64,000 nucleotides of DNA, taken from contig CAVOKF010000004.1 of assembly GCA_963696385.1 (NCBI GenBank), positions 1,088,001-1,152,000 of the forward strand, read 5' to 3'. Under the pieces are notes generated by a model. It was not told the DNA's origin. It ran no database searches and saw nothing but the letters and a program-made list of their open reading frames with translations. The DNA is from an uncultured delta proteobacterium (GTDB lineage Bacteria; Myxococcota_A; Polyangia; Polyangiales; Polyangiaceae). Positions 3,240 to 60,550 of this stretch are shown here, piece after piece. Positions within the stretch are counted from its first letter, which is position 1; every line of letters begins with the position of its first letter. The position numbers and the translations under genes were made by a program.

Positions 3240-4141
3240 AACGCCGGGCGCTGCTTGTCGTTGGGGCACTCGTCTTCACGGCGAGGTGCGTTCCGCCCCT
3301 CGGCCCCGGCGACTCGCTCATCACGTCGACACGCATTCTTGCCGTCCGCGCCGACCCCGCCGAGGCCGATCCGGGCTCCCGCGTGACCTTCACCGCGCTG
3401 GTCGCCGGTCCGGGCGGAACCGACAGCGGCGCCCCCATGACGTGGGACTTCTGCACCGCCCCGAAGCCACTGACCGAGAACAACGTCGTTTCGAACGCCT
3501 GCCTGGGCTCGTCCTCACTCGTCGCCGCCGGCGCTGGGCCCAGCATGACCGCCACGACCCCCAGCGACGGTTGCTCCATCTTTGGCCCAAGCACTTCGTC
3601 TGCGGGGGGCCGCCCCGTCGATCCGGACGCCACGGGCGGATACTACCAGCCCCTTCGCGCCGACCTCGCGGGCGCAGACAGCGCATTCGAGCTTGCCCGC
3701 ATCCATTGCGATCTGGCGAACGCATCCGCGACGGCAGCGAGCGCGTTCGCGGCGGCGTACGATTTGAATCAGAACCCCGAGCTCTCTCCTCTGACCGCGA
3801 CCGTCGACGGCATGCCGATCGCGCTGACTACGGTTGCCGCCGGGGCGCGTGTGTTGCTCGAAGCGAGCTGGCCAGCTGCATCCGTCGAAACTTTCGCCTA
3901 CTTCGATCCGGTGTCGCAAACGGTCACCAGTCAGCGCGAGTCGATGCAGGTCGCCTGGTACACGAGCGGCGGCACGCTCGATACCGAATCCACGGGGCGT
4001 TCCTCGGACGACCCGGCGACGGCGAGCGCCAACGGGTGGGACGCGCCGGGGGCAGAAGGCACGGTCCACCTGTGGATCGTGCTCCGCGATAGCCGGGGTG
4101 GCGTCGACTTCGCGGCGTATGACGTGGTCGTTGTGGACTGA
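3236..4141 (+). CDS. Lipoprotein associated with myxobacterial TonB-dependent receptors
   Basis: ATGA overlap with receptor stop; lipobox-like FTARC; RILAVRADPAEA and LWIVLRDSRGG motifs. Confidence 0.75.
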   Translation: MKRRALLVVGALVFTARCVPPLGPGDSLITSTRILAVRADPAEADPGSRVTFTALVAGPGGTDSGAPMTWDFCTAPKPLTENNVVSNACLGSSSLVAAGAGPSMTATTPSDGCSIFGPSTSSAGGRPVDPDATGGYYQPLRADLAGADSAFELARIHCDLANASATAASAFAAAYDLNQNPELSPLTATVDGMPIALTTVAAGARVLLEASWPAASVETFAYFDPVSQTVTSQRESMQVAWYTSGGTLDTESTGRSSDDPATASANGWDAPGAEGTVHLWIVLRDSRGGVDFAAYDVVVVD

Positions 4142-4153
4142 GCGGGGCAAGTC

Positions 4154-4708
4154 ATGCCGAACCCCGCGTCTTCGCTACTTCGCGATCCCCGGCAACTACC
4201 TGTTCACATCCCGTCAAGCGTGAACCCGATGGGCAAGGTCGGCGCCACCGAGTACGCGTATGCCGAGGCGGCTGCACCGGCACCGCTCCGTTACTCGACG
4301 GGTCTGAGCGGTTTCACGTCGAAGGCGACGCTCGCGGTCGAGAACTTCAACCCCACCACGTCCCTGTTCGATACCGTTCCGACGGGGAGCGCGTCGAGAG
4401 ACCAAGGTCTGGGGGTGGACCTGCTGTTTCAGTCTCCGCGGGTCGTCGCGCTCGCCGAGGGATACCTGCGACACGTCGAACCGGAGGGGTCTGGCGCCGA
4501 ATACACGTCCGTCGGTGCCTTCGCTCAGGCCGGCGTTCTGGTTTATCGCCGCGCGATCGATGCTGCGGTTCGCCTCTCGTGGGCGGACGTCAACCTCCTC
4601 CGCGTAGAGGGCCAGACCCACCAGACGTCCCAGCGGGCCACTGTGCAGAAGTCGACCTCCAACGATGACGCTTCGGATACGGCCCGACGGATCCCTTGGC
4701 ACGGTTGA
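4154..4708 (+). pseudogene. Fragment of outer-membrane porin (OprO/OprP-like)
   Basis: Amphipathic beta-strand pattern (GLGVDLLFQ, ALAEGYLR, GAFAQAGVLV, DAAVRLSW), no signal peptide, lies upstream of phoU. Confidence 0.4.
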
Positions 4709-4806
4709 GGCGGACCCTGATCACGCGTCCCGAGCGGCGCTGACGAAGTCGAAGGAGAGTCCGCGTCGTGGCTGACGCCGGTTTGTGTCATTGTGCTCGC
4801 TCTGAA

Positions 4807-5514
4807 GTGCAACGCATAACGTCCACGCACACCAGCCGGGACTTCGAGACCGAGCTTCGCGAGCTGCGAGCCCACCTGCTGGCGATGGGCGCTCGGTGCG
4901 AACGAATCGTCGGGCTGGCGTTCGAGGCTTTTCGGCGAGGAGATCCCGAGCTCCCCGGAACCTTGGAGTCTCTTGACGCCCAAATCGATCGCGATGAGGT
5001 CGAGATTCATGCGCTCATCCTGCGGATCCTCGCGCTGAGGCAGCCCGTCGCCGGCGATCTGCGCTTCCTGGCAACCGCGCTGCGGCTCATCACGGATCTC
5101 GAGCGCATCGGCGACGAGGCGGTCAACATCGGCGAGCGCACCGTGAAGCGGGACGGCGGTGCGCACCAGCTCGTCGACGGTGAACTCACCTCGATGGCGA
5201 CGGCCGCGCTGAACATGCTGCATGACGCGCTCGACGCGTTCGTGCGGTGGGACGACGAGGTCGCCGACCCCGTCCTCGGCTGCGACGATGGAGTCGACCA
5301 GGGTTGTGCGACCATCATGTCCGCGATGACCGCGCACATGTCCGAGCACCCGGGCGAGGTGCTGGCCGGACTGCGCGTGATACGGGTGGCCAAGTACCTG
5401 GAGCGCATTGCCGACCATGCGACCAACGTCGCGGAGGAGGTCATTTTCATGGTTCGAGCGGACGATGTGCGTCACGGGCAGTGGCAATCCTTGGCGGGCC
5501 CGAGACATCGATGA
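4807..5514 (+). CDS. phoU: Phosphate signalling complex protein PhoU
   Basis: RQPVAGDLR, TDLERIGDEAVNI, KYLERIADHATNVAEEVIFMV motifs. Confidence 0.95.
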   Translation: MQRITSTHTSRDFETELRELRAHLLAMGARCERIVGLAFEAFRRGDPELPGTLESLDAQIDRDEVEIHALILRILALRQPVAGDLRFLATALRLITDLERIGDEAVNIGERTVKRDGGAHQLVDGELTSMATAALNMLHDALDAFVRWDDEVADPVLGCDDGVDQGCATIMSAMTAHMSEHPGEVLAGLRVIRVAKYLERIADHATNVAEEVIFMVRADDVRHGQWQSLAGPRHR

Positions 5515-5974
5515 TCGGAAACGTCAGCTGATCGAGCGCATCGCGCTTGGCGCCGCGCTCGGCGGGGTCATCGGCTACGAGCGTGACCGGCATCGTCGGC
5601 CCGTTGGCCTGCGCACGCATCTCATTGTCGCGATGGCCGCGGCCACATTTACGGTCCTATCGGCACAGTTCGTGTACCGGCAGCACTACGGCAAGGACGA
5701 CCTCGTCGAAGTCGACACGGCGCGCATTGCGGCGTCCGTGGTTTCGGCGGTCGGATTCCTTGCGGGTGGCGCCATCCTGCGGACGGGGATCACGGTGCAA
5801 GGCCTCACCACGGCGGCAGGTCTATGGCTGGTCACGGCCATCGGCATGTGCGCCGGCGCGGGCATGTTTGTCGTGAGCATCCATGTTTGTCGTGAGCATC
5901 GCCGTGGGCCACGAAGCAAGCGGCGAAACGGCGTCGCGCGCGCCCGACGCTTACCCGTAAACATGAGCCTCTGA
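5511..5974 (+). pseudogene. MgtC/SapB family membrane protein, truncated after a 19-bp tandem duplication
   Basis: GGVIGYER, GLRTH, VGFLAGGAI, GLTTAAGLW motifs; CATGTTTGTCGTGAGCATC repeated at 5863-5881 and 5882-5900. Confidence 0.85.
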
Positions 5975-8859: not shown

Positions 8860-9746
8860 ATCGGGATGCGCAGATTCTCTCGTCCGCAGTAAGCGCGTCG
8901 GCGTGCCCGCAGTAAGAATCGCGGACGCGACCAAGACACTTGCCACGGGCGACGTCGAGACCGCGCGGTTCGATTCTCAATGGACCGCGAGGCTCGTCCA
9001 CGTGACCGCTCCCGACGGCTTCAGGATCTCGGTGGTCGGTGCGCCTTACGCGGCGAGTTTTCGTGTTCCGATCGCATGGACCAGCGAAGCTCTTTTCAAA
9101 ATCGGCGCTGCCAGAATCGGTGACACAAATGACGGAAATCAACCTTTGGGGGCGTGGCCCCCCGGTCGGCTCTGCGGTATGGGGCGCGCCTGGTCCGGTC
9201 CGCTTGCGCGAACGGCTTGGCGAACTGCTCAATTCTCGGAGCGAATCGCCGCCTAATCACCGCTTAATCACCGCTGGCGTCGCGGCGGATAGGTCGGGCC
9301 CATCCTCGCGTAACGCGCCATCCCTCACGACGCAACGAGATGCGGGGCGAGGCAAGTTGACTTCGGTTGCAGCGGGAAATGGATGGCGCGGGATTTCGAG
9401 GCCCGCCTGGCAATGACTCTCCCGATGCGGCGAGGGCGAAATCTCGCGCGACTGACGAACTAACCGGAGAGCTTCTCTACGTTCAGATCACGACGAGCAC
9501 ATGGCGGCGCGCCGCGGCCGTTTGGGAACGTGACCGCGCCGGCTGAGGCCTTGGACGTGGACGTGCCGGTCGCTGCGCAAGCGCTCGAATGGGTGCCCAT
9601 CACAGTCACGACGAAGCGCAGGCACTTCGATTTGAGTCAGCAAACGGCCCCGGGGTGGCAATGGATCCGGCCCTCGTGATTTCGCGCCGATTCGCGAAGT
9701 AGCACGGGACGCTTTCGTCCATGGGCCTCGGCTACGCTACGCGCGA

Positions 9747-42813: not shown

Positions 42814-43727
42814 CGAGTCGTGGTGGATTCGCGGCCGTGACCGCCGCTGCTCAAGCCGAGCGCCTCGTCGCCGTCGCCGATCTCGGCGAGGGCCTGTCGC
42901 GGCTGCGCCTCGCCGACGCCTGCGCGCTGGCCGCCATGCGCGCGTCGCTCAAGCAGCACGGCCAGCTCTCCGCCGTGCGCGCGTTCGAGCGGGATGGCGC
43001 CGTCGAGATCTTCGACGGCTTCAAGCGGCTACGCGCCGCGCGAGGGCTGGGCCTTCGCGATCTGCGCGCCGTCGTCACCGACCTTGGCGCCGTCGATGCC
43101 ACCGTGCAGATGCGCGAGCTGCACGCTGGCCGCGGGCTCACCGCGCTCGAGGAGGCGTGGATCGTGCGCGCCCTGCATCGAGAGCATCACGTGACGCAAG
43201 GGGCGATCGCTGCGCTGCTTCGTTGCCACAAGAGCTGGGTCTGTCGCCGCCTGATGCTGGTCGAAGCGCTCGATTCGTCGGTCCAAGCCGACGTTCGACT
43301 CGGGCTGCTCGCGCCGCGGGCAGCGATCCTCGTCGGCGCGTTGCCACGTGGCAACCAGCCGGCGGTCTCCGCGGTCGTCATCCGTCGCGGGCTCACCGTG
43401 CGGCAGACGGCCCTCTTGGTGCGCGAGCTCGCGGACGACTCGGGGCCGGGGCATGAGGCGGTGCTGGCGCGCTGGCGCGACGGGGGTCGGCCTGCGCGCC
43501 GCGGCCGCCCACGCACGGCAAGGAGCATCGCCGAGACAATCGCGCTCGACGTGACGACCATTCGACGGAGCGCGGGGCGACTTCAGGCCTGTTTGGCCGG
43601 GATGCCGCTCGACGCGTTGGGACCCGCCGCCGACGTCGTGGGCCCCGATCTCAGCAACCTCCATGGCGTGTTGGGCGGCCTGATGAAAACGATCACCGCC
43701 GTGACCGAGAGAGCGAGCAGGGCATGA
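42810..43727 (+). CDS. ParB N-terminal domain protein with HTH
   Basis: SLKQHGQL, IFDGFKRLRAA, TQGAIAALL.CHKSWVCRRL. Confidence 0.85.
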   Translation: MTSRGGFAAVTAAAQAERLVAVADLGEGLSRLRLADACALAAMRASLKQHGQLSAVRAFERDGAVEIFDGFKRLRAARGLGLRDLRAVVTDLGAVDATVQMRELHAGRGLTALEEAWIVRALHREHHVTQGAIAALLRCHKSWVCRRLMLVEALDSSVQADVRLGLLAPRAAILVGALPRGNQPAVSAVVIRRGLTVRQTALLVRELADDSGPGHEAVLARWRDGGRPARRGRPRTARSIAETIALDVTTIRRSAGRLQACLAGMPLDALGPAADVVGPDLSNLHGVLGGLMKTITAVTERASRA

Positions 43728-45298
43728 CGGTGCACTGGCGCTCTCGCGAGGAATTGATCCACCAGGTCGTCGTGTTGACGGCCCAGGGGATGAGCCGGCG
43801 CGCCATCACGCGGGCGCTGGGGGTCAGTCGGAACACGATCGAGAAGATCCTTCGGACCCACGGTCGCGAGCGCGACGACGGGCACGCCGCGCTGGCCGCT
43901 GCGCCCGTGCGCGCGCCGCGTTCCCGCAAGATCGACGCCTACCAGGGTCGCGTGAGCGAGTTGCTCGCGCGCTACCCGGACATCACCGCGCAGCGCGTGC
44001 TGGAGATCCTCAAGGACGAGGGATTCCAAGGCGGCTACACCGCCGTCAAGAAGCAGATGCGGCGCGTGCGGCCAGCGGCCAAGCCGACGCCGAGCCTCGA
44101 AGCTCCGGTGTTCGGACCGGGTGAGATGGCCGAAAACGATTGGTCGCCCTACACGCTCACGTATACGACCGGCCTCTCCGAGACTGTGCAGCTGTTCTCG
44201 TACGTCCTGGTCTATTCGAAGCGCAAGTCCTTCGACGTCTTCGGCTCGCCGGACTTGTTCGCGCTCATGGACGGCCACGAGCGCGCCTTCGCGCGCTTCG
44301 GCGGCTGCGCCGCGGGCTGCAAGTACGACAGCCAAAAGCCCGTCGTGCTCCGGTGGGAAGGCCACCAGCCCATCTACAATCCTCGGTATCTCGCCTTTGC
44401 CGCGCACTACGGCATTCAGCCCGCCGCCGTGCGAGGAAAACCCAACGCCAAGCCGCGCGTCGAACGCAGCTTCTGGGAGCACGAGCGATCGTTTCTCAAC
44501 GGCCGCTCATTTCGCGATCGCGACGACTTCGCCGCGCAGCTCGCCGACTGGCTCGTTCGCGTCGTCGACCCGCGCAAGCGTCACGGGCTGTCCGCCCTCG
44601 ATCGGTTTCGCGACGAGGCGCCTCATCTGCGGCCGCTGCCCAAGCATCCGTACGACACCGCCCGGGTCACGTATCGACTCTGCAGCATCGACGGGTACGT
44701 CGAATGGCTCGGTAACCGCTACGCCGTGCCGTACGACCATGTGACCGACTTCCTGCCGCTGCGCATCACGCAGACGGAGCTGTTCGTCTACGGGCCGAAT
44801 CTCGCTTGCCTGGCGCGCTATGAGCTGCGACCGCGCGGACGCGGCGACAAGATCGATCCGCTCGGGCTGCATCCTCGCCCAGAGAGCCGGTCGCCCATCG
44901 ACGTCGACAAGCTGCGCGCCACCTTCGAGCAGATGGGCGACGGGGCCGCCGCGTTCCTGCTCCAGCTCTCGGGCGCCCACGTGACCCGTGTCTGGACCCA
45001 CCACGCCCGGCAGATCCTGCTCTTGCGTGCCCGCTACGACAGCGCCGACGTCGACGCCGCCCTCGCGCACGCCGTTCGGTTCGGCGCGCTCGACGCGGCC
45101 TCGGTCGAGCGCATCCTCGCCCGACGCGCTCCGCCCCGGACCCTCGACGAGTACGTCGCCGAAGACACCGCCAAGCGCATCGATGACGCGCTCGGTCCCG
45201 TCGTCACACGCCCCCGCGATCTGGCCGAGTACGACGCTCTGCCGCTCGCCACCCGCCGCCCCGTGGAGACCGCCGATGGCCAAGACCAAAACGGATAA
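43724..45298 (+). CDS. istA: IS21-family transposase
   Basis: GMSRRAI.RALGVSRNTI, GFQGGYT, YDSQK, KPRVER. Confidence 0.95.
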   Translation: MTVHWRSREELIHQVVVLTAQGMSRRAITRALGVSRNTIEKILRTHGRERDDGHAALAAAPVRAPRSRKIDAYQGRVSELLARYPDITAQRVLEILKDEGFQGGYTAVKKQMRRVRPAAKPTPSLEAPVFGPGEMAENDWSPYTLTYTTGLSETVQLFSYVLVYSKRKSFDVFGSPDLFALMDGHERAFARFGGCAAGCKYDSQKPVVLRWEGHQPIYNPRYLAFAAHYGIQPAAVRGKPNAKPRVERSFWEHERSFLNGRSFRDRDDFAAQLADWLVRVVDPRKRHGLSALDRFRDEAPHLRPLPKHPYDTARVTYRLCSIDGYVEWLGNRYAVPYDHVTDFLPLRITQTELFVYGPNLACLARYELRPRGRGDKIDPLGLHPRPESRSPIDVDKLRATFEQMGDGAAAFLLQLSGAHVTRVWTHHARQILLLRARYDSADVDAALAHAVRFGALDAASVERILARRAPPRTLDEYVAEDTAKRIDDALGPVVTRPRDLAEYDALPLATRRPVETADGQDQNG

Positions 45299-46139
45299 AC
45301 CAGACTCCAATGACCGGGTGACCGGCCCGGCCTCTGACGAGGCCGTCGTGGTGATCGATCGCCTGCGCCGGCACCTCGGCTACTTGGGCCTCTCCCATAC
45401 GCTCTCCACGCTCGACGACTGGCTCGCGTGGGCCACCCGCGAGCGACCCGGACACACCGCCCTGCTCGAGCACGTCCTGGCCGCTGAGGTCAATCACAAG
45501 TCGGCCGCACGCCTGGACCGGCGTATCCGGGTCAGCGGCCTGGTCGAGCGAAAGACACTCGAGGCCTTCGACTGGGACTTCCAACCCTCGATCGACAAGA
45601 GCCTCGTGCTGGAGCTCGCCCGCCTCGACTTCGTCAGGCGCCACGACGACCTGGTCATCACGGGAAAGAGCGGCACCGGCAAGAGTCACATCCTCAAGGC
45701 TCTCTCCCTGCGCGCCTGCGTGCAGGGCATCTCCCTGCGCTACGCGCGGTGCGTCGACCTGCTCGCCGACCTGCACGCCGGCCTCGCCGACGGCACCTAC
45801 CCCCGACGCCTGAAGGCCTGGGCACGACCCGACCTGCTCGTCATCGACGACGTCGGCCTGGGGCAGGTGCGCCAGCGCGACGACGAGCCCACCGCCGCCC
45901 ATACTCTCTTCAACCTCGTCGATCGCAGGCACGGCAAGCTCTCGACCGCGGTCACCTCCAATATCGATTTGCGCCAGTGGGGACGCTACCTGGGAGACGC
46001 GACCGTCGCCGCCGCCATTCTCGATCGGCTCGCCATGCATGCCATTCGTATCGACATCGACGGACCGAGCTACCGCCAGCACGTCGCTGCCGAGCGTGCC
46101 GGCAAGCCGGTCGCACCCACTCGGGCGACGGCGCCGTGA
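45276..46139 (+). CDS. istB: IS21 ATPase
   Basis: FDWDFQP, GKSGTGKSH, LLVIDDVG, AILDRL. Confidence 0.95.
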   Translation: MAKTKTDKPDSNDRVTGPASDEAVVVIDRLRRHLGYLGLSHTLSTLDDWLAWATRERPGHTALLEHVLAAEVNHKSAARLDRRIRVSGLVERKTLEAFDWDFQPSIDKSLVLELARLDFVRRHDDLVITGKSGTGKSHILKALSLRACVQGISLRYARCVDLLADLHAGLADGTYPRRLKAWARPDLLVIDDVGLGQVRQRDDEPTAAHTLFNLVDRRHGKLSTAVTSNIDLRQWGRYLGDATVAAAILDRLAMHAIRIDIDGPSYRQHVAAERAGKPVAPTRATAP

Positions 46140-48128: not shown

Positions 48129-49831
48129 GTGGCTGCTCTCGCGCCCGCCTACGTTCCCCGTCGCCCGACCGAAACGGTCCTGTACGGATTGGTGCGCGAG
48201 AATCTGGAATCGTTTCTCGCGTACGCGCGTGAGAACTACGAGGGAGGGCTACCGCGCTACGTGGAAGCGGAGCTGCGCGCGTACTTGAATTGCGGCGTAT
48301 TGCGTGCGGATTTACGCGCTGCCACTGCGACTCATGCGGCCGCGACTTGCTTGTGGCCTTTAGCTGCAAGGGAAGATCTCTCTGCCCCAGTTGCTGCGGC
48401 AGGCGTATGGCCAACACGGCTGCCCACTTGGTCGACCGAGTCTTGCCCGACGTCCCTGTGCGGCAATACGTTCTGTCGCTCCCGTACGAGCTGCGCAAGC
48501 TTGCGGCGTTAAAGGCCGACGTTCTCACAGCCCTGGGCCGCATCTTCGTCGAGGCCATCTTTGCCCGCTACCGCGCTCGCGCCCAGCGCGAGGGCCTCGA
48601 GGATGCGCAGTGCGGAGCGGTAACCTTTGTTCAACGCTTCGGCAGTCTGAATCTCAACGTGCATTTTCACGTGTTGGTGCTCGATGGCGTCGTGACCCGG
48701 GACCCGGACCGTCGTGTGCTCTTTCATCCGGCGGCCGCTCCGACGCCGGTCGAGTTCGAGGTGCTGGTCGAGCGTGTGATGAACCGCAGCGTGGCGTGGC
48801 TGCGCCGCCACGGCCATGTGCAGGACACGCCGCTCGAAGAGCGCTCGAACGAGCCGCCGGCGCAGACTGCCCTCGACGCGTGCGCGGACATCGCCATGGG
48901 CCGCGGCACAGTCGCAACCTTGTCGAACGACGACGACGGGTCGAAGGACGACGACCGCGAGGCGCGGCCCGACGGGCTCGTCGGCGCGGTCGAGCGAGAC
49001 GGGTTTAATGTGCATGCCGGGGTCCGGATCGAAGCGGGCGACCATCTGGGTCGCGAACGACTGGCGCGTTACGGCGCGCGACCTCCGCTCTCGCTCGAGC
49101 GACTTCGCAGGTTGCCCGGCGGGCGGGTGGCCTATCGACTGAAGTACGTCCGTCGCGGCCGAGGCAAGTACAGAATCATGACTGGCCTGGAGTTCATGGC
49201 CCGCTTGAGCGCGATCATTGCGCCGCCTCGGTATCCGTTGGTGCGCTACAGCGGAGTGCTCGGGCCACACTCGAGCTGGCGACGCGACGTGGTGCCGAAG
49301 CCGCGCAAGACGGCTCCCGCCTGCCACCGCGCGCCCACCCCACCGCTGAGCTCGGCCAAGCCGGTCACCGGCGCAATGACGCACCCGGGCTCCGCGCTTC
49401 CCGGGGCGGCGGCGCCGACAGCGGGAAATGTCGAGAGTGCTCCGGCGCCGGCCGCCAGTTCCTCGGCGAAGGCGGGTCTGTCCGCGCTCCCCATCTTCGC
49501 GCATGGGGGCGAGGTCATCCCGCTCACGCCCAATGTGCTTGCTGTCAGCCACTGGGAACGGCTGCTCGGCGGCGCCATCTACGCGGCCTCGCCGCGCGTG
49601 GACTGGCCCACGCTCTTGAAACGAACGTTTGACGTGGACGTTCTGCAATGTCCGAAGTGCCACGGCCGACTGCGGGTGCTCGCCGTGATCACCGAGCGCG
49701 AGCCGGTGCGCCAGGTCCTCGCCCATCTCGGCCTGCCGACCGAGGCGCCGCCCGTCGCCCGGGCGCGCGACCCGACTGACGACGCGCAAGACCCCGAGCC
49801 GTCGGATCAACTCGAGCTGCAGCTCGCGTGA
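48129..49831 (+). CDS. IS91/ISCR-like HUH (Y2) transposase with Zn-binding domain; frameshift near 48300
   Basis: FSCKGRSLCPSC, RQYVLSLP, QRFGSLNLNVHFHVLVLDG (HUH), ARYGARPP, LVRYSGVL, CPKC. Confidence 0.9.
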
Positions 49832-52478: not shown

Positions 52479-52799
52479 ATGGGACGCGAGCGTCGGTCGC
52501 GAGTCTGGTGGTCAAGCCGAGTGGCGCGTTGGCGGCGCAGCGGGCTTACGGCGCGGCAATTCGCAGAGAGCGAAGGGCTTTCGGTGTTCTCGCTTCGGTG
52601 GTGGTCGAGCCAGTTGGCTCGTGATAACCGTGCGGAGCACGGTGCGTCGGCGATCGAGCCGATCGAGATCACCGTCGAGGGGCGTCAGGCCGGCCGCGAA
52701 CTGGTCGAAGTCGTGGTCGGCGCGGCGACGATCCGCTGCGAGCGGGGGACGGACGTCGGATACATTGCGGCGCTGGTTCGTGCGATCGCGGGTGCATGA
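52479..52799 (+). CDS. tnpA: IS66 TnpA
   Basis: WRRSGLTARQFAESEGLS. Confidence 0.85.
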   Translation: MGRERRSRVWWSSRVARWRRSGLTARQFAESEGLSVFSLRWWSSQLARDNRAEHGASAIEPIEITVEGRQAGRELVEVVVGAATIRCERGTDVGYIAALVRAIAGA

Positions 52800-53161
52800 C
52801 GGTGTTCGGTTTCTCGCCTCACGTTCGCGTGTACCTCGCGTCGCAGCCGGTCGACATGCGTGCAGGCCACGACAGTCTGTTCGCGATCGTGAAGAGCTGG
52901 GACCTGAATCCGTTCAGCGGGGACCTGTTTGCGTTCGTTGGGAAACGACGAGACCGGGTGAAGATTTTGGTGTGGCACCGCGGGGGATTTTTATTGGTCT
53001 ACAAGCGGTTGGAAAGAAATCGATTTCGGATCCCTGCGATCCAGCCGGGAACGCGGACGGCGATGCTCGATGCGACGCAGCTGGCGATGTTGCTCGATGG
53101 CATCGACGTCCAACACGTTCAACGCCCCGCGCTGTGGCAGCCTCCGGGTCTGGCGCGCTGA
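52796..53161 (+). CDS. tnpB: IS66 TnpB
   Basis: PVDMR.G.D.L, FVGKRRDRVKIL, YKRLE. Confidence 0.95.
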   Translation: MTVFGFSPHVRVYLASQPVDMRAGHDSLFAIVKSWDLNPFSGDLFAFVGKRRDRVKILVWHRGGFLLVYKRLERNRFRIPAIQPGTRTAMLDATQLAMLLDGIDVQHVQRPALWQPPGLAR

Positions 53162-53268
53162 GCCCCGTCGCGGCCCTGTGTGTCCATTGGACACTTTGTC
53201 GCTGAAATCGTCGTCGGCCCCCACGCTAAGCCTTTTAATCTGCGCGGCGATGGTGCACGAAAAGGATC

Positions 53269-54873
53269 GTGGTTGATGCGCGAGACGTCCGCATCGCGAA
53301 GCTTGTGGAGCTGCGCAAGCGCGCCGAAGAGCGTGAGCGACAACTGGGCGAGATCGTCGCGCAGCAGCAGACGCTGATCGCTGCGCAGCAGCAACTCATC
53401 GCCGAGCTGCAGCGTCGACTGTCCGAGCAAGATGCGCAGCAGAAGGCGCGCGCCGAAGAGATGAAGGCCGAGATCGACCGGCTGGAGCGGCAACTGTTGG
53501 GCCCGAAGACCGAGCGGACCCACGTTCCGCCGATCGACGCCGAGCTTCGCAACACCGAACCGATGACCGACGAAGAGCGCGCGCGCCGTCGCGAAGAGAT
53601 TGCACGCAAGCGACGCGAACGCGCACTCGCGAAGAACGCCGCGATGGCCGTCGAGCAGGTCGAGTACCCGGTACCCGAATCGATGAAGCCGTGCGCTCAT
53701 TGTGGCGGCGTGCATGCGCGAGCTCTCGAGCCCGAGCAGAGCACGACGTACGAGTACAAGCCGGGTCACTTCATCCGTCGTGTGCACAAGCGGCAGAAGC
53801 TCGCATGCAGCTGCGGCCAGTCCATCGTGACGGCGCCGCCGCCTCCGAAGCTCGTCGTCGGTGGACAGTACGGCTTCGGGTTCGCCGCATTCCTCATCGT
53901 GGAGAAGTGCGCCGACTCGATTCCCATTCATCGCATTGAGAAACGATTCGGCCGACTTGGGATCCCGATCTCGCGCAGCACGATGAACGATCTCGTTTAC
54001 AAGGCTGCCGAGATTGTTCGACCGCTCGTCGCTCGACTGCAGACGCGAATCGCGGCTCTCGAAGTCGTGCTCGCCGACGAGACCTCGATGCGCTTGCAGG
54101 ACCGTCCCAAGCGCGGCTTTGTCTGGGTGTTTCACGGTCACGATGAAGTCAGCGGCGGCAAGCTTGTTCTGTATGCCTTCGCCGTCGATCGAAGCGGCGA
54201 CACGCCGGCGAAGATCCTGGGTGGCACTCGCGGCACTCTCGTGGTGGACGGATACACGGGGTACAACCAGGTGACCGACCCGCTCGGACGCGCGCGCGGC
54301 GGATGCTGGAGCCACATGCGCAGAAAGCTCTTCGAGGCGCGCTCCACCCGTGCGGCCGAGGACATCGACCCCGCGCTCGGGATCATCCGCGAGATCTTTC
54401 GTGTCGAACACGACGCGACCGAGCAGAAGATCGTCCGCACTCCGGCCCATCTCGAGCTGCGAAATGCGCGTAGCGCTCCGCTGGTCGAGCAATTCTTTCA
54501 GTGGGCCGAACACAAGAAGGTCGAGGTCCTTCCGAAGGGCCCGCTCGGCGAGGCGCTCGGTTACGCGATTAACCAACGCGCTCGACTCGAGCTTTTCTTG
54601 TCGGATCCGCGTATTCCGATGCACAACAACGGCTCAGAGTCCCGCTTACGCGTTATTGCTCTGGCTCGCCATACGTACCTTTTCTTCGGACATCCACTCG
54701 CGGGCAAAAACTTCGCGGGGCTCTACTCGCTCGTCGGCTCCTGCATCGCCAACGAAGTCGAGCCGACGGAGTATCTCACCGACGTACTTGCCCGAGTCCG
54801 CGACGCAACGACCGACGAGCAGCTCGACGCGCTGCTACCCGATCGGTGGGCGCCACACGGTCCAGCGCCCTGA
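53269..54873 (+). CDS. tnpC: IS66 transposase TnpC
   Basis: ADETS, VVDGY.GY, CWSHMRRK, HNNGSE. Confidence 0.95.
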   Translation: MVDARDVRIAKLVELRKRAEERERQLGEIVAQQQTLIAAQQQLIAELQRRLSEQDAQQKARAEEMKAEIDRLERQLLGPKTERTHVPPIDAELRNTEPMTDEERARRREEIARKRRERALAKNAAMAVEQVEYPVPESMKPCAHCGGVHARALEPEQSTTYEYKPGHFIRRVHKRQKLACSCGQSIVTAPPPPKLVVGGQYGFGFAAFLIVEKCADSIPIHRIEKRFGRLGIPISRSTMNDLVYKAAEIVRPLVARLQTRIAALEVVLADETSMRLQDRPKRGFVWVFHGHDEVSGGKLVLYAFAVDRSGDTPAKILGGTRGTLVVDGYTGYNQVTDPLGRARGGCWSHMRRKLFEARSTRAAEDIDPALGIIREIFRVEHDATEQKIVRTPAHLELRNARSAPLVEQFFQWAEHKKVEVLPKGPLGEALGYAINQRARLELFLSDPRIPMHNNGSESRLRVIALARHTYLFFGHPLAGKNFAGLYSLVGSCIANEVEPTEYLTDVLARVRDATTDEQLDALLPDRWAPHGPAP

Positions 54874-55325
54874 ACCACTGGGGCGCAGCGCAACTCCCGC
54901 AATCCCCGAACGCGTCGCGCGTCGTCACGTCGATGCAGAGTGTCGCGCGAGTCCGCGACGCGACCCCAGCACGACGTGCCGCTATCCATACGAGCGCAGC
55001 GCCTCGCCTCTGCCCCCCTGAACCACTGGCCTGAAGTCGCCAAGCATGGTCGCGCTCTGTTGCGGCCGCGGCAACGACGTCAACGCGACGATGCTCTTGG
55101 CGTGCTCGCCAACAATCGCGACGAGTACTGGGACAAGAAGCTCGCCGCCGATACTTGGCAGGGGCCTCATCGCGGGAAAGGCCCGCCCCCTGAACCATTC
55201 TTGGACTCAGGTCAACAGCGGGGCGCGCCGGACGCTTACCGCGCGCCGGAACGAGCCATGGCCTCGTCGCTCAGATTTCCGCGCTCCCTGCGAGCGACAT
55301 CGCCGGCTCAATCTCTATTCGATGC

Positions 55326-56540
55326 TTATTCGATGCTTGCTCGGGCGATCAGCTCGTCCGGGCGTTCGTTTAGGAGCTCCGAGCAGGTACCGCCGATGGC
55401 GTACGACGCGATTTCTTGTTTGAGAACACGCACGAGTGACCCGTCGAGCTCGGATCGAAATATAGCAAAAAGTCGTTCTGCAGGGCCCTCCGGATCCTTC
55501 GTGGCGAACACTACCCGTCGCAGGGATATGTTGTTTCTCAAGCCGGCAGCGATCAGGTACTTGAAGTGCCCGTCAGAGGCTGGAATTGAGAAACCGAGGA
55601 TACCGATCCGAGTCGCATCGGTGAGGGCTTTCACCGCGTCGTCCCACACGAAGGCCAATGCGCCGTCGAAGTTTTTCTGCCAGGTCGGCGGAACAATCAA
55701 AGGGACGTATCGGGCCCCCAAAAGGTCTCGGTACGTCTCGTAATCCTTCAGGAGCCTCGTGTCCGGGATCTGGCTTCGCGGATTATCGGATCCGCTCGGG
55801 CGCGCCCAATTTATCGAGCCGTGCAGTTTGAGCAGTTTGACGCAGCGCTCGTGCGAGGGCCGCTTCTCGTCGTTCGCATCGATCGTACCATAGTTCCAGT
55901 CGATACCGAGCGCGGTCAGCGCGGTTTCGATGACCAAGTCGTAGTTGAACGTAATGATCGTAATGCGGCGGCGCGGGTCGTCGGCCCAGACGCGGCCGGT
56001 CAAGAAGGCGTAGGTCAACTCGCTCAGGGAACGGTCGATGATAACGATCGGTTGCTGGGGCGCGTTGATCGGCATGGGCCCGCGCATAGTCGCCGCGATT
56101 GTCTGCGTCGGTTGTTCGTCTGCCACATGCTGCCAGGACGGGGGTGCCGTCCAGCTTGGACCACTGTTTCGAGGAACACCCACTTTTCCGTGTGCAGCGC
56201 GAAACCCGGCCGAATAGTCGAGAGTCGACGCGATGGCGATCTTGACGTCGTCCATCAGGCCATTGCTTTCGCTGGCGGCTGCGAGACTGAACAGTTCCTC
56301 GATGTTCTCCGGATCCACTTGGACGCGGTAGGCGGCTGACGCGATCTCGTGCCGAAACGCCAAGACGTTCTGTATCGCCCTCTGCTCGCGCTCGCGACCG
56401 TCTTGGTCGTCAAGCCAGTCAAGTGCGTCTCGCATGCGATTGAGAAAGTTCGCGACGACCGGCATGCCTGCGTCGACCGAGGCGCCCGCGCCAAGGATGT
56501 AGACGACATTGTGATTGTAAAGGTCAGGTCCCATGCCCAT
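55326..56540 (-). CDS. SIR2-like (SIR2_2) domain protein, putative defence NADase
   Basis: ILGAGAS...P, ITFNYD, KLHGSINW, IVPPT, ILGFS. Confidence 0.85.
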   Translation of the reverse strand: MGMGPDLYNHNVVYILGAGASVDAGMPVVANFLNRMRDALDWLDDQDGREREQRAIQNVLAFRHEIASAAYRVQVDPENIEELFSLAAASESNGLMDDVKIAIASTLDYSAGFRAAHGKVGVPRNSGPSWTAPPSWQHVADEQPTQTIAATMRGPMPINAPQQPIVIIDRSLSELTYAFLTGRVWADDPRRRITIITFNYDLVIETALTALGIDWNYGTIDANDEKRPSHERCVKLLKLHGSINWARPSGSDNPRSQIPDTRLLKDYETYRDLLGARYVPLIVPPTWQKNFDGALAFVWDDAVKALTDATRIGILGFSIPASDGHFKYLIAAGLRNNISLRRVVFATKDPEGPAERLFAIFRSELDGSLVRVLKQEIASYAIGGTCSELLNERPDELIARASIE

Positions 56541-56807
56541 TCGGATCGCGAGCGTAACTGGAGCCGCCGAATCTTGCTGCCGCCGGCGAGTGCCCGGGGC
56601 CAAGGGTCGCCAGCGATCCGGCGAAGGCGATACGCGGATCAGCCGGTGGCGATACGTTCTGTACGGCGCGCTGTCGGGTCACGCAACCGAGAATCGTGGG
56701 GCAAAGCCGAGTCCTCCAGAACCAGTGCCCCAGTGCCCTGTAGTGGGCGGAGCGAACGCCCGGGTCATCTCGGTCATCTCGGAACCGCTGCCCGAGTCAG
56801 GCGAGCT

Positions 56808-56850
56808 CAAATCGGCCGCTCGGTGACAACGGAAGCCCCTAAGACGCGAT
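56808..56850 (+). repeat. dif-like repeat R6, left half (cut by IS4)
   Basis: CAAATCGGCCGCTCGGTGACAACGGAAGCCCCTAAGACGCGAT, then the IS end. Confidence 0.85.
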
Positions 56851-58326
56851 CATAAGTTGGTACTTAGGGATTCGGGATGGCGCTCGCTACCACACAAGTG
56901 CGAGTGGCTCGAGGCCCATAGCGAGACGTCCGCGCTTTCGATCGCGAGCAGGATGAGCGCGGCGCGCGTTGGAATCGAGGAACTTGAGCGCTTCGGCGAG
57001 GGCACGACGCAATTGGCGCGGTGAGTCGAGGAGGCCGCGGAGGACATCGTCGAAGTAATGCTTGCCGGACGCGGCGGCTCGCTGGGTCGAAAGCTCCACC
57101 CCCAGCGACGCTTCCGCGAAGTGTGCGAGCGAGCGTTTCAGAAGGGCTGCGAGCAGGCTCGCCCATATCATCGCTTTCGCGATAGCGGCCTTGCCCGTAT
57201 CGAAGGCATGAAGGTTGGCGTGAGATTTGAACTCTTTGAACAGGAGTTCCACCTGCCAGCGGAGGCGATACAAGCCGGCCACGTCGGCGGCGGAGAAGCG
57301 CTTGCGAGCGAGGTTGCTGTGCAGGTACACGAACGTCTTCGCGTTGCGCTTGCCGCGCTTGTAGATCGCCACAATTCGCCCGCGATACACGAATGAATTC
57401 GCCTGCCATTCGATGTCGAGATCGACCGTGTGGGCCGGAAGCAGGTCCCAGTTCAACTTCTGGCCGAGCAACTTGGGGATGGATTTGCCGGCGCTGTCGA
57501 AAGCGGCCCGAATGGTGGGTCGAATGTTTTTGGTTCCGCGGACGATGAAGGCGCCGCCCGCTTGGTCGACGTCGAAAAAGAATTTTCGCTCCTCGTACCC
57601 TCGGTCGGCCAGAAAGAGCCGCTCGCGAAGACTCGCGGCCTCGGGACGGTAGGTTCGCTCGGTCTCCTTGTCGGCCGTCAGGGCGACGATGCGCACATCG
57701 TCTTGGAGCAGACTCATCGTGACGTGCAGTTCCACGGCGGCAGGCGAGATTTTTGTAAAGCGGCCCGGCCATGTGCCTTTCAAGTCGTCCTTGAGCGCGA
57801 ACGACGTCCCGTCGTGAATGACGATGTCCCGAAAGGTCGACAGTTTGGGGGACACGGCGTGCAGAACCGGCTGGCTCATCTTCTGTACCGTCGCTTCCAG
57901 CAGCATCCGAAACATCTCTGGAAAGGACGCTTGCGCGAGCCGGTTGTGAAAGGGCTTATATCGCAGCGAAAGGCCCGCGAATTTCCGGAACGTCCGCAGA
58001 ATATCGGCCAACCACTTGGCGTGGCCCGACCCGAGCGTCGACAGCACCGCCACGACCATCGCCAGCGGCATCACCTTGCGCACTCGCCGTAGCCAGCCGC
58101 TACGTCTCGCGATCGCGGTCACCTCCTCCTCGCCGAGTACTTCCGTAAGCCGTTTCGCATACACGCCGACTCCGGCGCGTGTACTGTTTGATCCGTGCAT
58201 CGGGGGTCTCCTTTCGCGTTGTCTCACAACAGCGTCTAGAGAATCCCCGATGCCTTTGACTATCCAATTCGTGCACTATGCACGTAAGTGATCGAGATCA
58301 CTCGGGAAATAAAGATCCTACCTATG
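56851..58326 (-). mobile_element. IS4-family element (transposase 56887..58200)
   Basis: IHDGTSF, LADRGY, YRLRWQVELLFKEFK (YREK); ends CATAAGTTGG / CCTACCTATG. Confidence 0.95.
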
Positions 58327-58398
58327 AACGGGTTATATGTGACCGCCGCGGTTTCCGCGGCTCTTCGTTGATCGATACGCTTTCGACCGGCTACTCGC
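58327..58398 (+). repeat. dif-like repeat, right half (spacer CGGGTT)
   Basis: AA CGGGTT ATATGTGACCG...TTTCCGCGGCTCTTCGTTGA...GGCTACTCGC. Confidence 0.85.
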
Positions 58399-58580
58399 TC
58401 CTTGCCTCCCCGCCATCGCGAGGACCGTCATCGACGCCACAACATCGCGACGACCGTCGCATATTCCGGCGTGGCTCAGGCTGTCGTTCCAATGTAGCAT
58501 CGCGACGTGAGGGGACCCTTGTCAATCGCCGTCCAGACCGCGACAGCCGCGGCGCGCAATTGGCGCTGGTAGCTACCGGC

Positions 58581-59261
58581 ATGGCGCTCATCTCCTGCCC
58601 GGACTGCGGCCGCTCGGTATCGGATGCTGCCGTCGCGTGCGGCGGCTGCGGGCTTCCGATTGCCGGCCATTTCGTTCATCCGCAGTCGCGGCCCCGCTGG
58701 TACCACACCACTGTTGTCGTCGGGCTGGCGCTGTTGCTTGTCTATCCAATCGGTCTGCTTCTGCTCTGGACCGATCGAAGGACGAAGGGATCCACGAAGG
58801 CGTTGGCCACCGTGCTGTTCGGTTTGCTGTTCATGGCGGTCATGCGCGGCGCATCGTCTGACCACGTCGCTTCGTCGACGAGCGACGGTTCGCGGGGACA
58901 ATCGATCCTTCACGCTATGGTGAACCGGGACCAAGCACCCACCGCCAACACCTACGCCGTGCCGCTTTCCACGCTGCTCGGCGAGTATTCGGATAACGAA
59001 GTGCGCGCTGACGTTCGCTATAAACAACATTGGATTCGGACCTCGGGGATCGTCGGCGAGGTCAAAAAGGACATCACGGACAGTCCCTTTGTGACCATTG
59101 GTAATGGCAGCGAATTTCAGATCCCGGTTGTCCAGTGCTTGCTTGCGGATGATCAAGTCGCCCGGGCCGCAAGCTTTTCGAAAGGAGATCGGGTCAAGAT
59201 CGTCGGGCGAGTCGACGGCCTCATGATGAACGTAATCATGAGGGATTGTCGGTTCGAGTAA
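58581..59261 (+). CDS. Zinc-ribbon + TM + OB-fold (tRNA_anti-like) protein
   Basis: MALISCPDCG.SVSD.A.AC..CG.P; EYSDNEVRAD..YK; KGDRVKIVG. Confidence 0.8.
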   Translation: MALISCPDCGRSVSDAAVACGGCGLPIAGHFVHPQSRPRWYHTTVVVGLALLLVYPIGLLLLWTDRRTKGSTKALATVLFGLLFMAVMRGASSDHVASSTSDGSRGQSILHAMVNRDQAPTANTYAVPLSTLLGEYSDNEVRADVRYKQHWIRTSGIVGEVKKDITDSPFVTIGNGSEFQIPVVQCLLADDQVARAASFSKGDRVKIVGRVDGLMMNVIMRDCRFE

Positions 59262-59306
59262 CGGGAGGAAGGTGTCACCGGCGGCGACTCACGCTTGCCG
59301 ACCTGC

Positions 59307-59416
59307 CAAATCGGTTCGCCGATTCAGCGATAACGAACGCCCCTAAGACGCGATATGTTTCCGCGCCCGCTTCCGCGGCTCTTCGTCGACCGACGCACTT
59401 TGGGCTTACTACTCGC
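59307..59416 (+). repeat. dif-like repeat R7 (core 59336-59363, spacer GACGCG)
   Basis: Left half matches R5, right half matches R2/R3. Confidence 0.9.
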
Positions 59417-59418
59417 TC

Positions 59419-59991
59419 GTAAAGCGGCCCGGCCATGTGCGTTTCAAGTCGTCCTTGAGCGCGAACGACGTCCCGTCGTGAATGACGATGTCCCGAAAGG
59501 TCGACAGTTTGGGGGACACGGCGTGAAGAACCGGCTGGCTCATCTTCTGTACCGTCGCTTCCAGCAGCATCCGAAACATCTCTGGAAAGGACGTCTTCGC
59601 GAGCCGGTTGTGAAAGGGCTTATATCGCAGCGAAATGCCCGCGAATCTCCGGAACGTCCGCAGAATATCGGCCAACCACTTGGCCTGGCCCGACCCGAGC
59701 GTGGACAGCACCGCCACGACCATCGCCAGCGGCATCACCTTGCGCACGCGCCGTAGCCAGCCGCTACGTCTCGCGATCGCGGTCACCTGCTCCTCGCCGA
59801 GTACTTCCGTAAGCCGTTTCGCATACACGCCGACTTCGGCGCGTGTACCGTTCGATCCGTGCATCGGGGTCTCCTTTCGCGTTGTCCCACAACACCGCGT
59901 CTAGAGAATCCCCGATGCCTTTGACTATCCAATTCGTGCACTATGCACGTAAGTGATCGACATCACTCGAGAAATAAAGATCCTACCTATG
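59419..59991 (-). mobile_element. Truncated second IS4 copy
   Basis: Close homolog of 57756-58326, cut after GRFT. Confidence 0.9.
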
Positions 59992-60040
59992 ATAACCCGT
60001 TAGGGGCTTCCGCCGTCGCTGTAATGGCGAACCGATTTGG
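59992..60040 (-). repeat. dif-like repeat R8, left half (spacer CGGGTT), cut by IS4
   Basis: Reverse: CCAAATCGGTTCGCC...GAAGCCCCTAA CGGGTT AT, then the IS end. Confidence 0.85.
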
Positions 60041-60550
60041 TATCCACTGCACGAATCGGCGAGTAGCCGGTCGTTGAGCAGTTCGCCAATTTGGTCCGCC
60101 TTCAGCTCGAACCTCCCGTTGGCGGTTGGCCCATAAGAAGTCCTATGTGAAGACGGCTCCCTTGCCAGCTCGCGCCCGCTTGCACGGCCTATCCGCCCGA
60201 GTCGTCGCCGAAAGAAGGGCAGTCCACGAGCCGCTGGCGAGAGTTCTTAGGCCGCTCGCCGCTCAAGCAGGGCCTGCTGGCAGCAAGGCCCTTGCGCCAG
60301 CTCCACGGTGCGCATCTCTTGGTCGACGACTTGCAGGGACATCAGGGGTCGAAGTGTGCCTGCACGCAAGCGTCTGCCGGGAAACACCGCGCTAATGGTG
60401 AGAAGCCCAACAGAATCAAGTAGGTCGTAGAGGAAGCACCTCAAAAACATCCCCATTTAGCGTTTCGCGAAATACCTGGCTGCGCTCTTGCATCTGCAAA
60501 ACCGAGCGGGGCGGTGGATACCGATCAGTGACCGCAAGGGAGTGACTCCG

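Follow-up and report, generated by a model that had tools for sequence, protein, structure and literature searches.

An IS4-family insertion sequence found in one register of the core of an interspersed repeat in a myxobacterial genome

The stretch of DNA analysed here (the window) comprises 64,000 nucleotides from an uncultured member of the Polyangiaceae (contig CAVOKF010000004.1, positions 1,088,001 to 1,152,000). It corresponds to G000:C4:1088001-1152000, where G000 denotes the source genome of 8 contigs and 6.94 Mb; other loci are likewise given by contig and position. The window contains a full and a truncated copy of an insertion sequence (IS) of the IS4 family, and all three IS ends adjoin one 10-bp core of a repeat of about 125 bp. 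Across the genome 10 of the 20 IS loci had at least one end in such a core; counted as insertion events these were 11 of 21, all in one register. The core matches the target preference of the IS, and we consider it probable that this preference, together with the many identical targets, a regional bias and tolerance of the insertions, has brought about half of all insertions into a single core register in either orientation.

The element and its insertion events

In the sequence read from 56400 to 60500, the 10-mer AAGACGCGAT (56841-56850) was followed by one IS end (CATAAGTTGG) from position 56851. The opposite end (...CCTACCTATG) closed at 58326 with AACGGGTTAT (58327-58336) directly after it. 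The truncated copy reached 59991 with the identical end ...CCTACCTATG and was followed by ATAACCCGTT (59992-60001), the reverse complement of AACGGGTTAT. The repeat arms around these 10-mers were fixed, with CCCCT before and ATGT after the core, and the motif CCCCTAA-N6-ATATGT (one mismatch allowed) occurred five times in the window and not at all in each of 100 shuffles. Cores reading AAGACGCGAT or one of its one-base variants are referred to as A-type, those reading AACGGGTTAT or AACGAGTTAT as B-type. The full copy in the window had an A-type left arm as its left flank and no direct duplication, and its right flank was the same, base for base, as that of a right arm belonging to the intact B-type repeat at G000:C4:52940. 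Because its flanks come from two core variants, this copy is a recombinant between two IS copies.

A blastn search of G000 found 20 IS loci, 12 full-length (94-100% identity) and 8 truncated. An exact 10-bp target-site duplication, as the initial annotation had proposed, flanked nine of the 12 full copies. One further duplication differed by a 1-base indel in a C run, and the two copies without a duplication, the window copy and C7:1434520, were both recombinant. Perfect duplications of a core 10-mer were found at C5:728478 (ATCGCGTCTT), C6:108748 and C7:1397665 (both ATAACCCGTT) and C8:878418 (AACGGGTTAT). The remaining core events had the same register; they comprised the window copy (two ends), the right end of C7:1434520 and the intact ends of four truncated copies (C2:103708, C4:48211, window 59991 and C6:107810). 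With targets limited to the 1191 TA-N8-TA sites of the genome, the probability of this many core events was 5.6e-11. The other ten events lay in unrelated sequence and consisted of six full copies with duplications and four single ends; the non-core duplications of full copies included AGTTGCGTAT, AGCGCGTACA, AACGCGCATT, AGCGGCAGCT and AGAAGGCCCT.

The insertions in the cores were separate events and not copies of one unit, since their outer flanks were unique, both orientations occurred (4 versus 7, p 0.55) and the arms of the occupied repeats differed from one another. Beyond the repeat the flanks of occupied loci shared nothing, except for loci that physically overlap. It might be argued that the arms are parts of a longer composite element which carries the IS, the common register then resulting from duplication of a single unit; in favour of this, some flanks are near-identical along the repeat (e.g. 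C7:1397665 and window 59992). In addition to the unshared flanks, differing arms and both orientations, the six full copies in unrelated sequence with perfect or near-perfect (one 1-base indel) 10-bp duplications and the approximately 53 repeats without the IS argue against such a unit, whose existence is hardly credible. The shared register and the sequence of independent insertions followed by recombination that the initial annotation had read from the three window junctions therefore both extend to the genome, the latter visible in the A-type left and B-type right arm of the window copy. Its description of the element as specialised for these sites stands in so far as cores are strongly enriched and about half of the copies lie in them; it fails for the ten events elsewhere. 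The outcome that the annotation had named as refuting it, a majority of the other copies in unrelated sequence, was not observed. Nor is this a type 1 association in the sense of Tobes and Pareja, where all or nearly all copies are inside the repeat.

The IS is 1476 bp long. Its terminal inverted repeats are imperfect, CATAAGTTGGTACTT opening one end and CATAGGTAGGATCTT the other, and both ends start with CAT and have T at position 15. A single transposase open reading frame (ORF) without frameshift lies on the minus strand; it is open from a GTG at 58227 (446 aa, P0001), while homologues are mostly 437 aa, and it was stop-free in 11 genomic copies. The transposase matched Pfam DDE_Tnp_1 (E 1.6e-17, residues 132-363) and scored 183.1 bits against the NCBIfam IS4 family model NF033592 (cut-off 115); its scores against the NCBIfam models for IS701, IS1380 and IS1634 were far under their cut-offs. 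In an alignment of 21 sequences (the transposase and 20 homologues) D139, D208 and E327 were invariant with spacings of 68 and 118, as were Y320, R323, E327 and K334 (YREK). The triad falls within the Pfam match, and the catalytic roles of these residues were assigned from conservation. According to De Palmenaer et al. (2008; PMC2266710) the IS4 family is defined by a D(60-110)D(100-150)E triad and the signature Y-(2)-R-(3)-E-(6)-K in region C1. The triad spacing, the YREK residues, the single ORF and a duplication of about one helical turn all agree with this, and the element is a member of the IS4 family, as the initial annotation had stated. Table 1 of the same paper lists 1400-1800 bp, CAT ends with T15 and a 10-bp direct repeat for the ISH8 subgroup. 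The size, the ends, the 10-bp repeat and YREK would make our element ISH8-like, judged by these sequence features. Matches of the transposase in a tblastn search included plasmid records of Halobacterium (15) and Haloarcula (8); the best named match was the plasmid-borne 'IS4-like element ISPa13 family' (34% identity).

Two kinds of rearrangement were seen at IS copies. At C7:1434134-1436381 a full copy lies between 386-bp direct duplications, which start exactly at the core 10-mer ATCGCGTCTT and end with ...AGTGGCCCTT, itself a site of the form t/A-N8-T (a slash marks a border of the duplicated 10 bp). Either an unequal exchange of insertion alleles 376 bp apart or strand transfers at two half sites could have produced this arrangement. 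Repeats of 8-514 bp are mentioned for IS1549 and IS1634 (PMC2266710). The broken ends of three truncated IS copies (window 59419, C4:48591 and C6:107549) were joined to a terminus of the repeat, one to the right and two to the left terminus, as if the repeat had entered the IS or nucleated deletions. These joins suggest that the repeat itself is perhaps a discrete, possibly mobile unit.

In public assemblies (Logan contigs) the IS was present in 20 runs, which belong to 14 studies of soil, peat and wetland. Among loose ends from four runs of four studies, the transposase-proximal end lay on AAGACGCGAT-ATGT (contigs X5 and X9) or on an A-type left arm (X1), and the other end on an A-type core (X6); X5, X6 and X9 also held IS-free cores. 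The IS ends thus lie on A-type cores in both orientations, consistent with the genome table. As these contigs are repeats and probably stem from the species of G000 itself, they provide no locus-specific or independent evidence, and because their fitting parts are repeat arms the IS-free joints are not assignable to the window locus.

Target preference and the core of the repeat

A profile built from 49 copies of the repeat, in which positions 51-60 correspond to the core 10-mer, recovered 107 pieces in the genome, 53 of them near-full. The pieces cluster on C2, at C4:38-53 kb, at C4:1019-1030 kb, in the window, at C6:1-130 kb and at C7:1356-1440 kb. Besides the A-type cores (27 unoccupied) and B-type cores (2 unoccupied) there are cores of types C and D (AAGGCCTTTT, AAGGCGTTAT and others; 11 when exact flanks are required and about 14 under looser matching), which have A and not T directly before them. 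In a search of 31 genomes of the genus, the repeat and the IS were found only in G000 and in G003, the genome of a sister species. An Rfam search of window positions 44-64 kb (E up to 1) gave no match to the repeat, and folding it as DNA and RNA on both strands gave z-scores of -0.33, -0.07 and -0.34, which are nothing special.

The register is explained by the relatives of the element. Homologous IS (33-55% identity) were found in Gammaproteobacteria, Myxococcota, Acidobacteriota, Planctomycetota and others, and their termini are kept (CATAGGTAGGATCTT...). Of 80 such loci, 19 combined two recognisable ends with an exact 10-bp duplication, and these yielded 18 distinct target sites. These sites were mutually unrelated. 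After symmetrisation they had T at position -1 in 29 of 36 cases and A at +1 in 30 of 36, and they favoured R at +2 and Y at +9; in genome OZ241870 the duplications of the homologous IS were mostly 9 bp. The register t/A-N8-T/a is therefore a property of the clade, used at unrelated sites, and the repeat core CCCCT/A...T/ATGT fits it. The initial annotation had proposed testing copies and homologues for enrichment of the core context and of 10-bp duplications. Both were found within the genome; the homologues made 10-bp duplications at unrelated sites.

How well each core type fits the preference was estimated from two matrices. Among the 6.9 million positions of the genome, a matrix built on 12 of its own sites outside repeats (5 IS sites and 7 candidate scars, described below) ranked the B core at about 130, the A core at about 300 and the C/D cores at about 2900-5900. 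Occupancy by the IS followed the same order (B 5/7, A 6/33, C/D 0/~14; Fisher p 0.011 for B versus A and 0.048 for A and B versus C/D, the counts of unoccupied cores being approximate). There is also a bias by region. Of the 17 insertions or candidate scars outside cores, 11 were within 10 kb of a repeat, compared with 12% of the genome (p 4e-7).

Several points weigh against preference and region as the whole explanation. The matrix from the 18 sites of the relatives ranks the A core at about 1175 and the B core at about 2611, which is opposite to occupancy, and both matrices are small, with 12 and 18 sites only. Positions within the islands that score at least as high as the A core number 35 in repeats and 40 outside. 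About 46 cores, including occupied ones, have been struck 16 times (11 IS and 5 scars) and the roughly 40 non-core positions four times (Fisher p 0.01, odds ratio 4.8), those four being part of the training set. Finally, the ISH8 subgroup is described as lacking apparent target specificity in PMC2266710. Most of the bias towards cores is accounted for by sequence preference and region, and an approximately 5-fold excess is left over. The small size of the matrices, selection against insertions in genes or a feature of the repeat that the matrices do not capture could be its source.

Could survival alone have produced the pattern? The IS might insert at any site resembling TA-N8-TA and persist in cores because insertions elsewhere are harmful and lost. 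The repeats do lie in IS-rich islands with IS21, IS66, ISCR and IS110 elements, non-core copies are concentrated in the islands as well, and few IS copies are found elsewhere. We nevertheless regard this as unlikely. The copies are 94-100% identical, which leaves little time for purging, and in-island positions with equal scores were struck far less than cores, by the odds ratio given above. Moreover, C/D cores in the same islands were never occupied, and the IS-free candidate scars were biased in the same way, with five in cores and about seven outside.

The initial annotation had called the core dif-like and had taken the IS as an independent mark of a functional site. In that case the core would be a working site-specific recombination site of the Xer/dif kind, with the IS drawn to it by a bound recombinase or by the DNA shape that the recombinase imposes. 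It is true that the core 10-mer varies by repeat subfamily while CCCC(T/A) and (T)ATGT are constant, that several half repeats lose homology at or beside the core, that the genome has 31 tyrosine recombinase matches and that an excess with an odds ratio of 4.8 is left after sequence and region have been accounted for. However, the 11-bp arms of the family consensus, with GACGCG as spacer, match as a dyad at only 4 of 11 positions, and near-full copies number about 53, not one per replicon. pdif sites alternate in orientation and bound modules, whereas neighbouring repeats less than 10 kb apart were in opposite orientation in 15 cases and in the same orientation in 15. There is no recombinase gene beside the repeats at window 43.5-64 kb. 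Of the tyrosine-recombinase matches the best two, which are XerC/D-like, lie on contig C3 at a distance from the repeats, and none falls in the window. Half repeats ending at the core may equally have been left by IS-mediated rearrangement, about half of the insertions are outside repeats, and the relatives use the same register at unrelated, unrepeated sites. A functional recombination site is thus very unlikely to be what directs the IS. Since T-A...T-A of the core sets the insertion register, the insertions give no independent support for dif-like function, although some recombinase may act at the core.

We return to target preference as the explanation. The element would be an active cut-and-paste IS of the IS4 family, the transposase of which may attack the two target strands 10 bp apart at a preferred, loosely palindromic site T/A(R)-N6-(Y)T/A; presumably the transposase itself reads the target sequence. 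The core of the lineage-specific repeat, CCCCT/AAGACGCGAT/ATGT or CCCCT/AACGGGTTAT/ATGT, matches this site well, and at least about 40 core copies are on offer inside IS-rich, apparently dispensable islands, where the IS also lands outside repeats. Homologous recombination between IS copies in different repeats could then create mismatched flanks such as those of the window copy.

Insertion into a repeated target is not unique to G000. In a gammaproteobacterial metagenome-assembled genome all three copies of a homologous IS (L101, L117 and L155) adjoin the 10-mer AGTTGCAGTT in a common palindromic flank. In L101, and likewise in the homologue L103, the two 10-mers on either side of the IS are reverse complements, which suggests an inversion between IS copies. 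A flank of the G000 insertion C7:1416005 looked tRNA-like; this reading was rejected, since ARAGORN detected no tRNA either with the IS in place or in the empty site as reconstructed by computation.

Duplicated cores and other elements on the repeat

Five IS-free repeats of G000 hold the core 10-mer twice with a short spacer between the copies, and their arms differ in each case. In core orientation the spacer is T at C2:74073, C2:103599 and C4:46481, A at C4:81396 and AT at C6:60091. One further duplicated core is present in the sister species at a non-orthologous locus (G003:C184:7338). The duplicated 10 bp are exactly those duplicated by the IS, and about 50 other repeats have a single copy. 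Among exact two-unit tandem duplications of 11 bp, of which the genome contains 16 (14 not of low complexity), the form T-(A/T)-N8-T accounts for 8 of the 14, compared with 0.3 expected (p 7e-11). These duplicated IS-free cores are likely to be excision scars joined by Ku and LigD.

The spacers (T, A, AT and one C) match the addition of a single non-templated A to one or both blunt 3' ends. At C4:83965, C7:614501 and C7:485384, where the first base of the 10-mer is T or the last is A, A-addition fits and the palindromic nucleotides of hairpin opening do not. IS10 and IS50 leave blunt donor flanks by way of a hairpin at the transposon end. In this genome two Ku and two LigD-polymerase domains scored over the cut-off. 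Both templated and non-templated nucleotides are added by the LigD polymerase, an activity that related primase-polymerases show on blunt ends (PMC8068969).

Against a scar origin, the duplication at C7:614501 is also present in G003 with two substitutions and is therefore old or unrelated. No empty site of a candidate scar was recovered in G003. Homology to G003 breaks at the site at C4:986182 and at window 9255, where the homology of the left flank ends, and C1:337555 has no orthologue in that genome. A full-text search of the literature gave no description of end-joining scars of bacterial IS, which does not prove that none exists.

Other elements use fixed positions on the same repeat. An IS110-family element (NF033542, 216 bits) is inserted between CAAATCGG and TTCGCC of the left arm. 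It has five full copies, including C4:1017825-1019590 (L156), with unique outer flanks and differing repeat variants; its borders are the short inverted repeats GAACCGGTGG and CCACCGGTTC, and a 189-bp remnant lies beside a repeat of the window at about 51.8 kb. At window positions 48290-49831 lies an ISCR/IS91-type rolling-circle transposase gene, and in 5 of 5 copies the end of this element lies directly before the left border of the repeat, after GTTC.

Two further sequences were observed at the repeat. The right arm is broken at one place (after GACGCACTT) by a common sequence at C6:22287, C6:105720, C7:1370093 and C7:1434130; it resembles an IS66-type end, which is an unconfirmed candidate label. 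An 8-copy sequence ending in ...CGCCTATTAT stands in place of the left arm and of most of the core and abuts TTATGT of the right arm (profile 58/59), for example at C2:75397, C2:119383, C6:48248, C6:58554 and C7:94439. It was considered as a whole IS and rejected, with only 165-363 bp common to the copies.

Taken together, the repeat might be a shared landing pad for at least three unrelated transposition chemistries (IS4 DDE, with 11 insertions and 5 scars at the core; RNA-guided IS110, with 5 copies and a remnant; rolling-circle ISCR/IS91, with 5 copies), and its duplicated cores with a single A or T between the target-site duplications might be genuine Ku/LigD scars with a non-templated A. 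This combined view we put forward tentatively and with more doubt than confidence.

The features of the window are collected in Table 1. The stretch at 43.5-57 kb is a run of mobile genes (IS21 istA/istB, the ISCR/IS91-type gene, IS66 orf2/orf3 and a SIR2-like gene). The IS21-type istA/istB and IS66-type orf2/orf3 genes, at 43724-46139 and 52796-54873, make it an IS-dense stretch adjoining the insertions described here. The candidate footprint at 55317-55337 touches the 3' end of the SIR2-like ORF (55326-56603).

Table 1. Features of the window related to the IS4-family element and the repeat
Feature	Position	Strand	Basis or remark
A-type repeat left arm and core AAGACGCGAT	56803..56850	+	nhmmer match C4:1144803-1144850, profile positions 8-60
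Full IS4-family IS, 1476 bp, ISH8-subgroup-like	56851..58326	-	Boundaries from 12 full-length copies, 94-100% identity
Transposase gene, 437 aa from ATG (58200)	56887..58200	-	Translation, Pfam DDE_Tnp_1, NCBIfam IS4 family
B-type core AACGGGTTAT and right arm, at transposase-proximal IS end	58327..58404	+	nhmmer C4:1146327-1146404, profile 51-128
Uninterrupted A-type repeat, core 59345-59354	59303..59427	+	Right terminus joined to interior of truncated IS
Truncated copy of IS (IS positions 905-1476, 97% identity)	59419..59991	-	blastn
B-type core (ATAACCCGTT on + strand, 59992-60001) and left arm, inverted	59992..60046	-	nhmmer C4:1148046-1147992, profile 6-60
Candidate excision footprint outside repeat: ATTCGATGCT-T-ATTCGATGCT	55317..55337	.	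Fits t/A-N8-T; link to IS4 element is a candidate
Candidate excision footprint outside repeat: AATCACCGCT-T-AATCACCGCT	9255..9275	.	Fits t/A-N8-T

Relation to known systems and significance

That an IS4-family IS prefers a symmetric target carried by an interspersed repeat is familiar behaviour, and its nearest precedent is found in ISRm22 of Sinorhizobium meliloti 1021 (IS4Sa subgroup), likewise a DDE element of the IS4 family at a fixed place in an interspersed intergenic repeat. Its insertions are in repetitive extragenic palindromes (REPs), with 10 of 10 copies in the table and nine copies in the text of Tobes and Pareja (PMC1525189), the insertion site being palindromic; conserved target arms are noted for it in PMC2266710. 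In contrast, only about half of the copies of the G000 element are in the repeat, which forms no stable hairpin (the fold z-scores ranging from -0.07 to -0.34), and the element is ISH8-like and has a myxobacterial host. The 1476 bp, CAT ends with T15, 10-bp direct repeat, YREK and the haloarchaeal plasmid matches are points of agreement with the ISH8 subgroup of PMC2266710. Unlike that report of no apparent target specificity, t/A-N8-T/a is clear in the G000 element and its relatives.

Elements of the IS110/IS1111 group which target REPs, attC or transposon ends resemble it in their fixed-position insertion into a repeat, but they are DEDD elements, RNA-guided and without a 10-bp duplication, whereas ours is a DDE element. 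Hallet and colleagues are reported to have found in 1991 and 1994 that IS231A (IS4 family, CAT ends, duplication of about 10-12 bp) favours a symmetric target in the ends of Tn4430. IS231A would then be another CAT-ended IS4-family element with a symmetric target on a repeated mobile sequence. It differs in target consensus and host, and the AA at positions 11-12 that forms part of the IS231 end signature (PMC2266710) is absent from our element.

The element offers a well-documented case of target choice in the IS4 family, with 21 events, both orientations and a graded use of natural target variants. For a widespread and little-studied clade, t/A-N8-T/a provides a target consensus where none was reported before. 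At the same time the IS no longer counts as separate evidence that the repeat has a dif-like function; its insertions do not support the idea that they mark such a site. If the duplicated cores are excision scars, they would offer a rare genomic view of how a bacterium loses an IS and closes the gap by end joining. Should both the landing pad and the scars prove true, the islands would hold a natural record of the cut-and-paste turnover of a bacterial IS, which is usually invisible in genomes. The repeat would then also be a test bed on which site choice by DDE, RNA-guided DEDD and rolling-circle elements could be compared on one short sequence.

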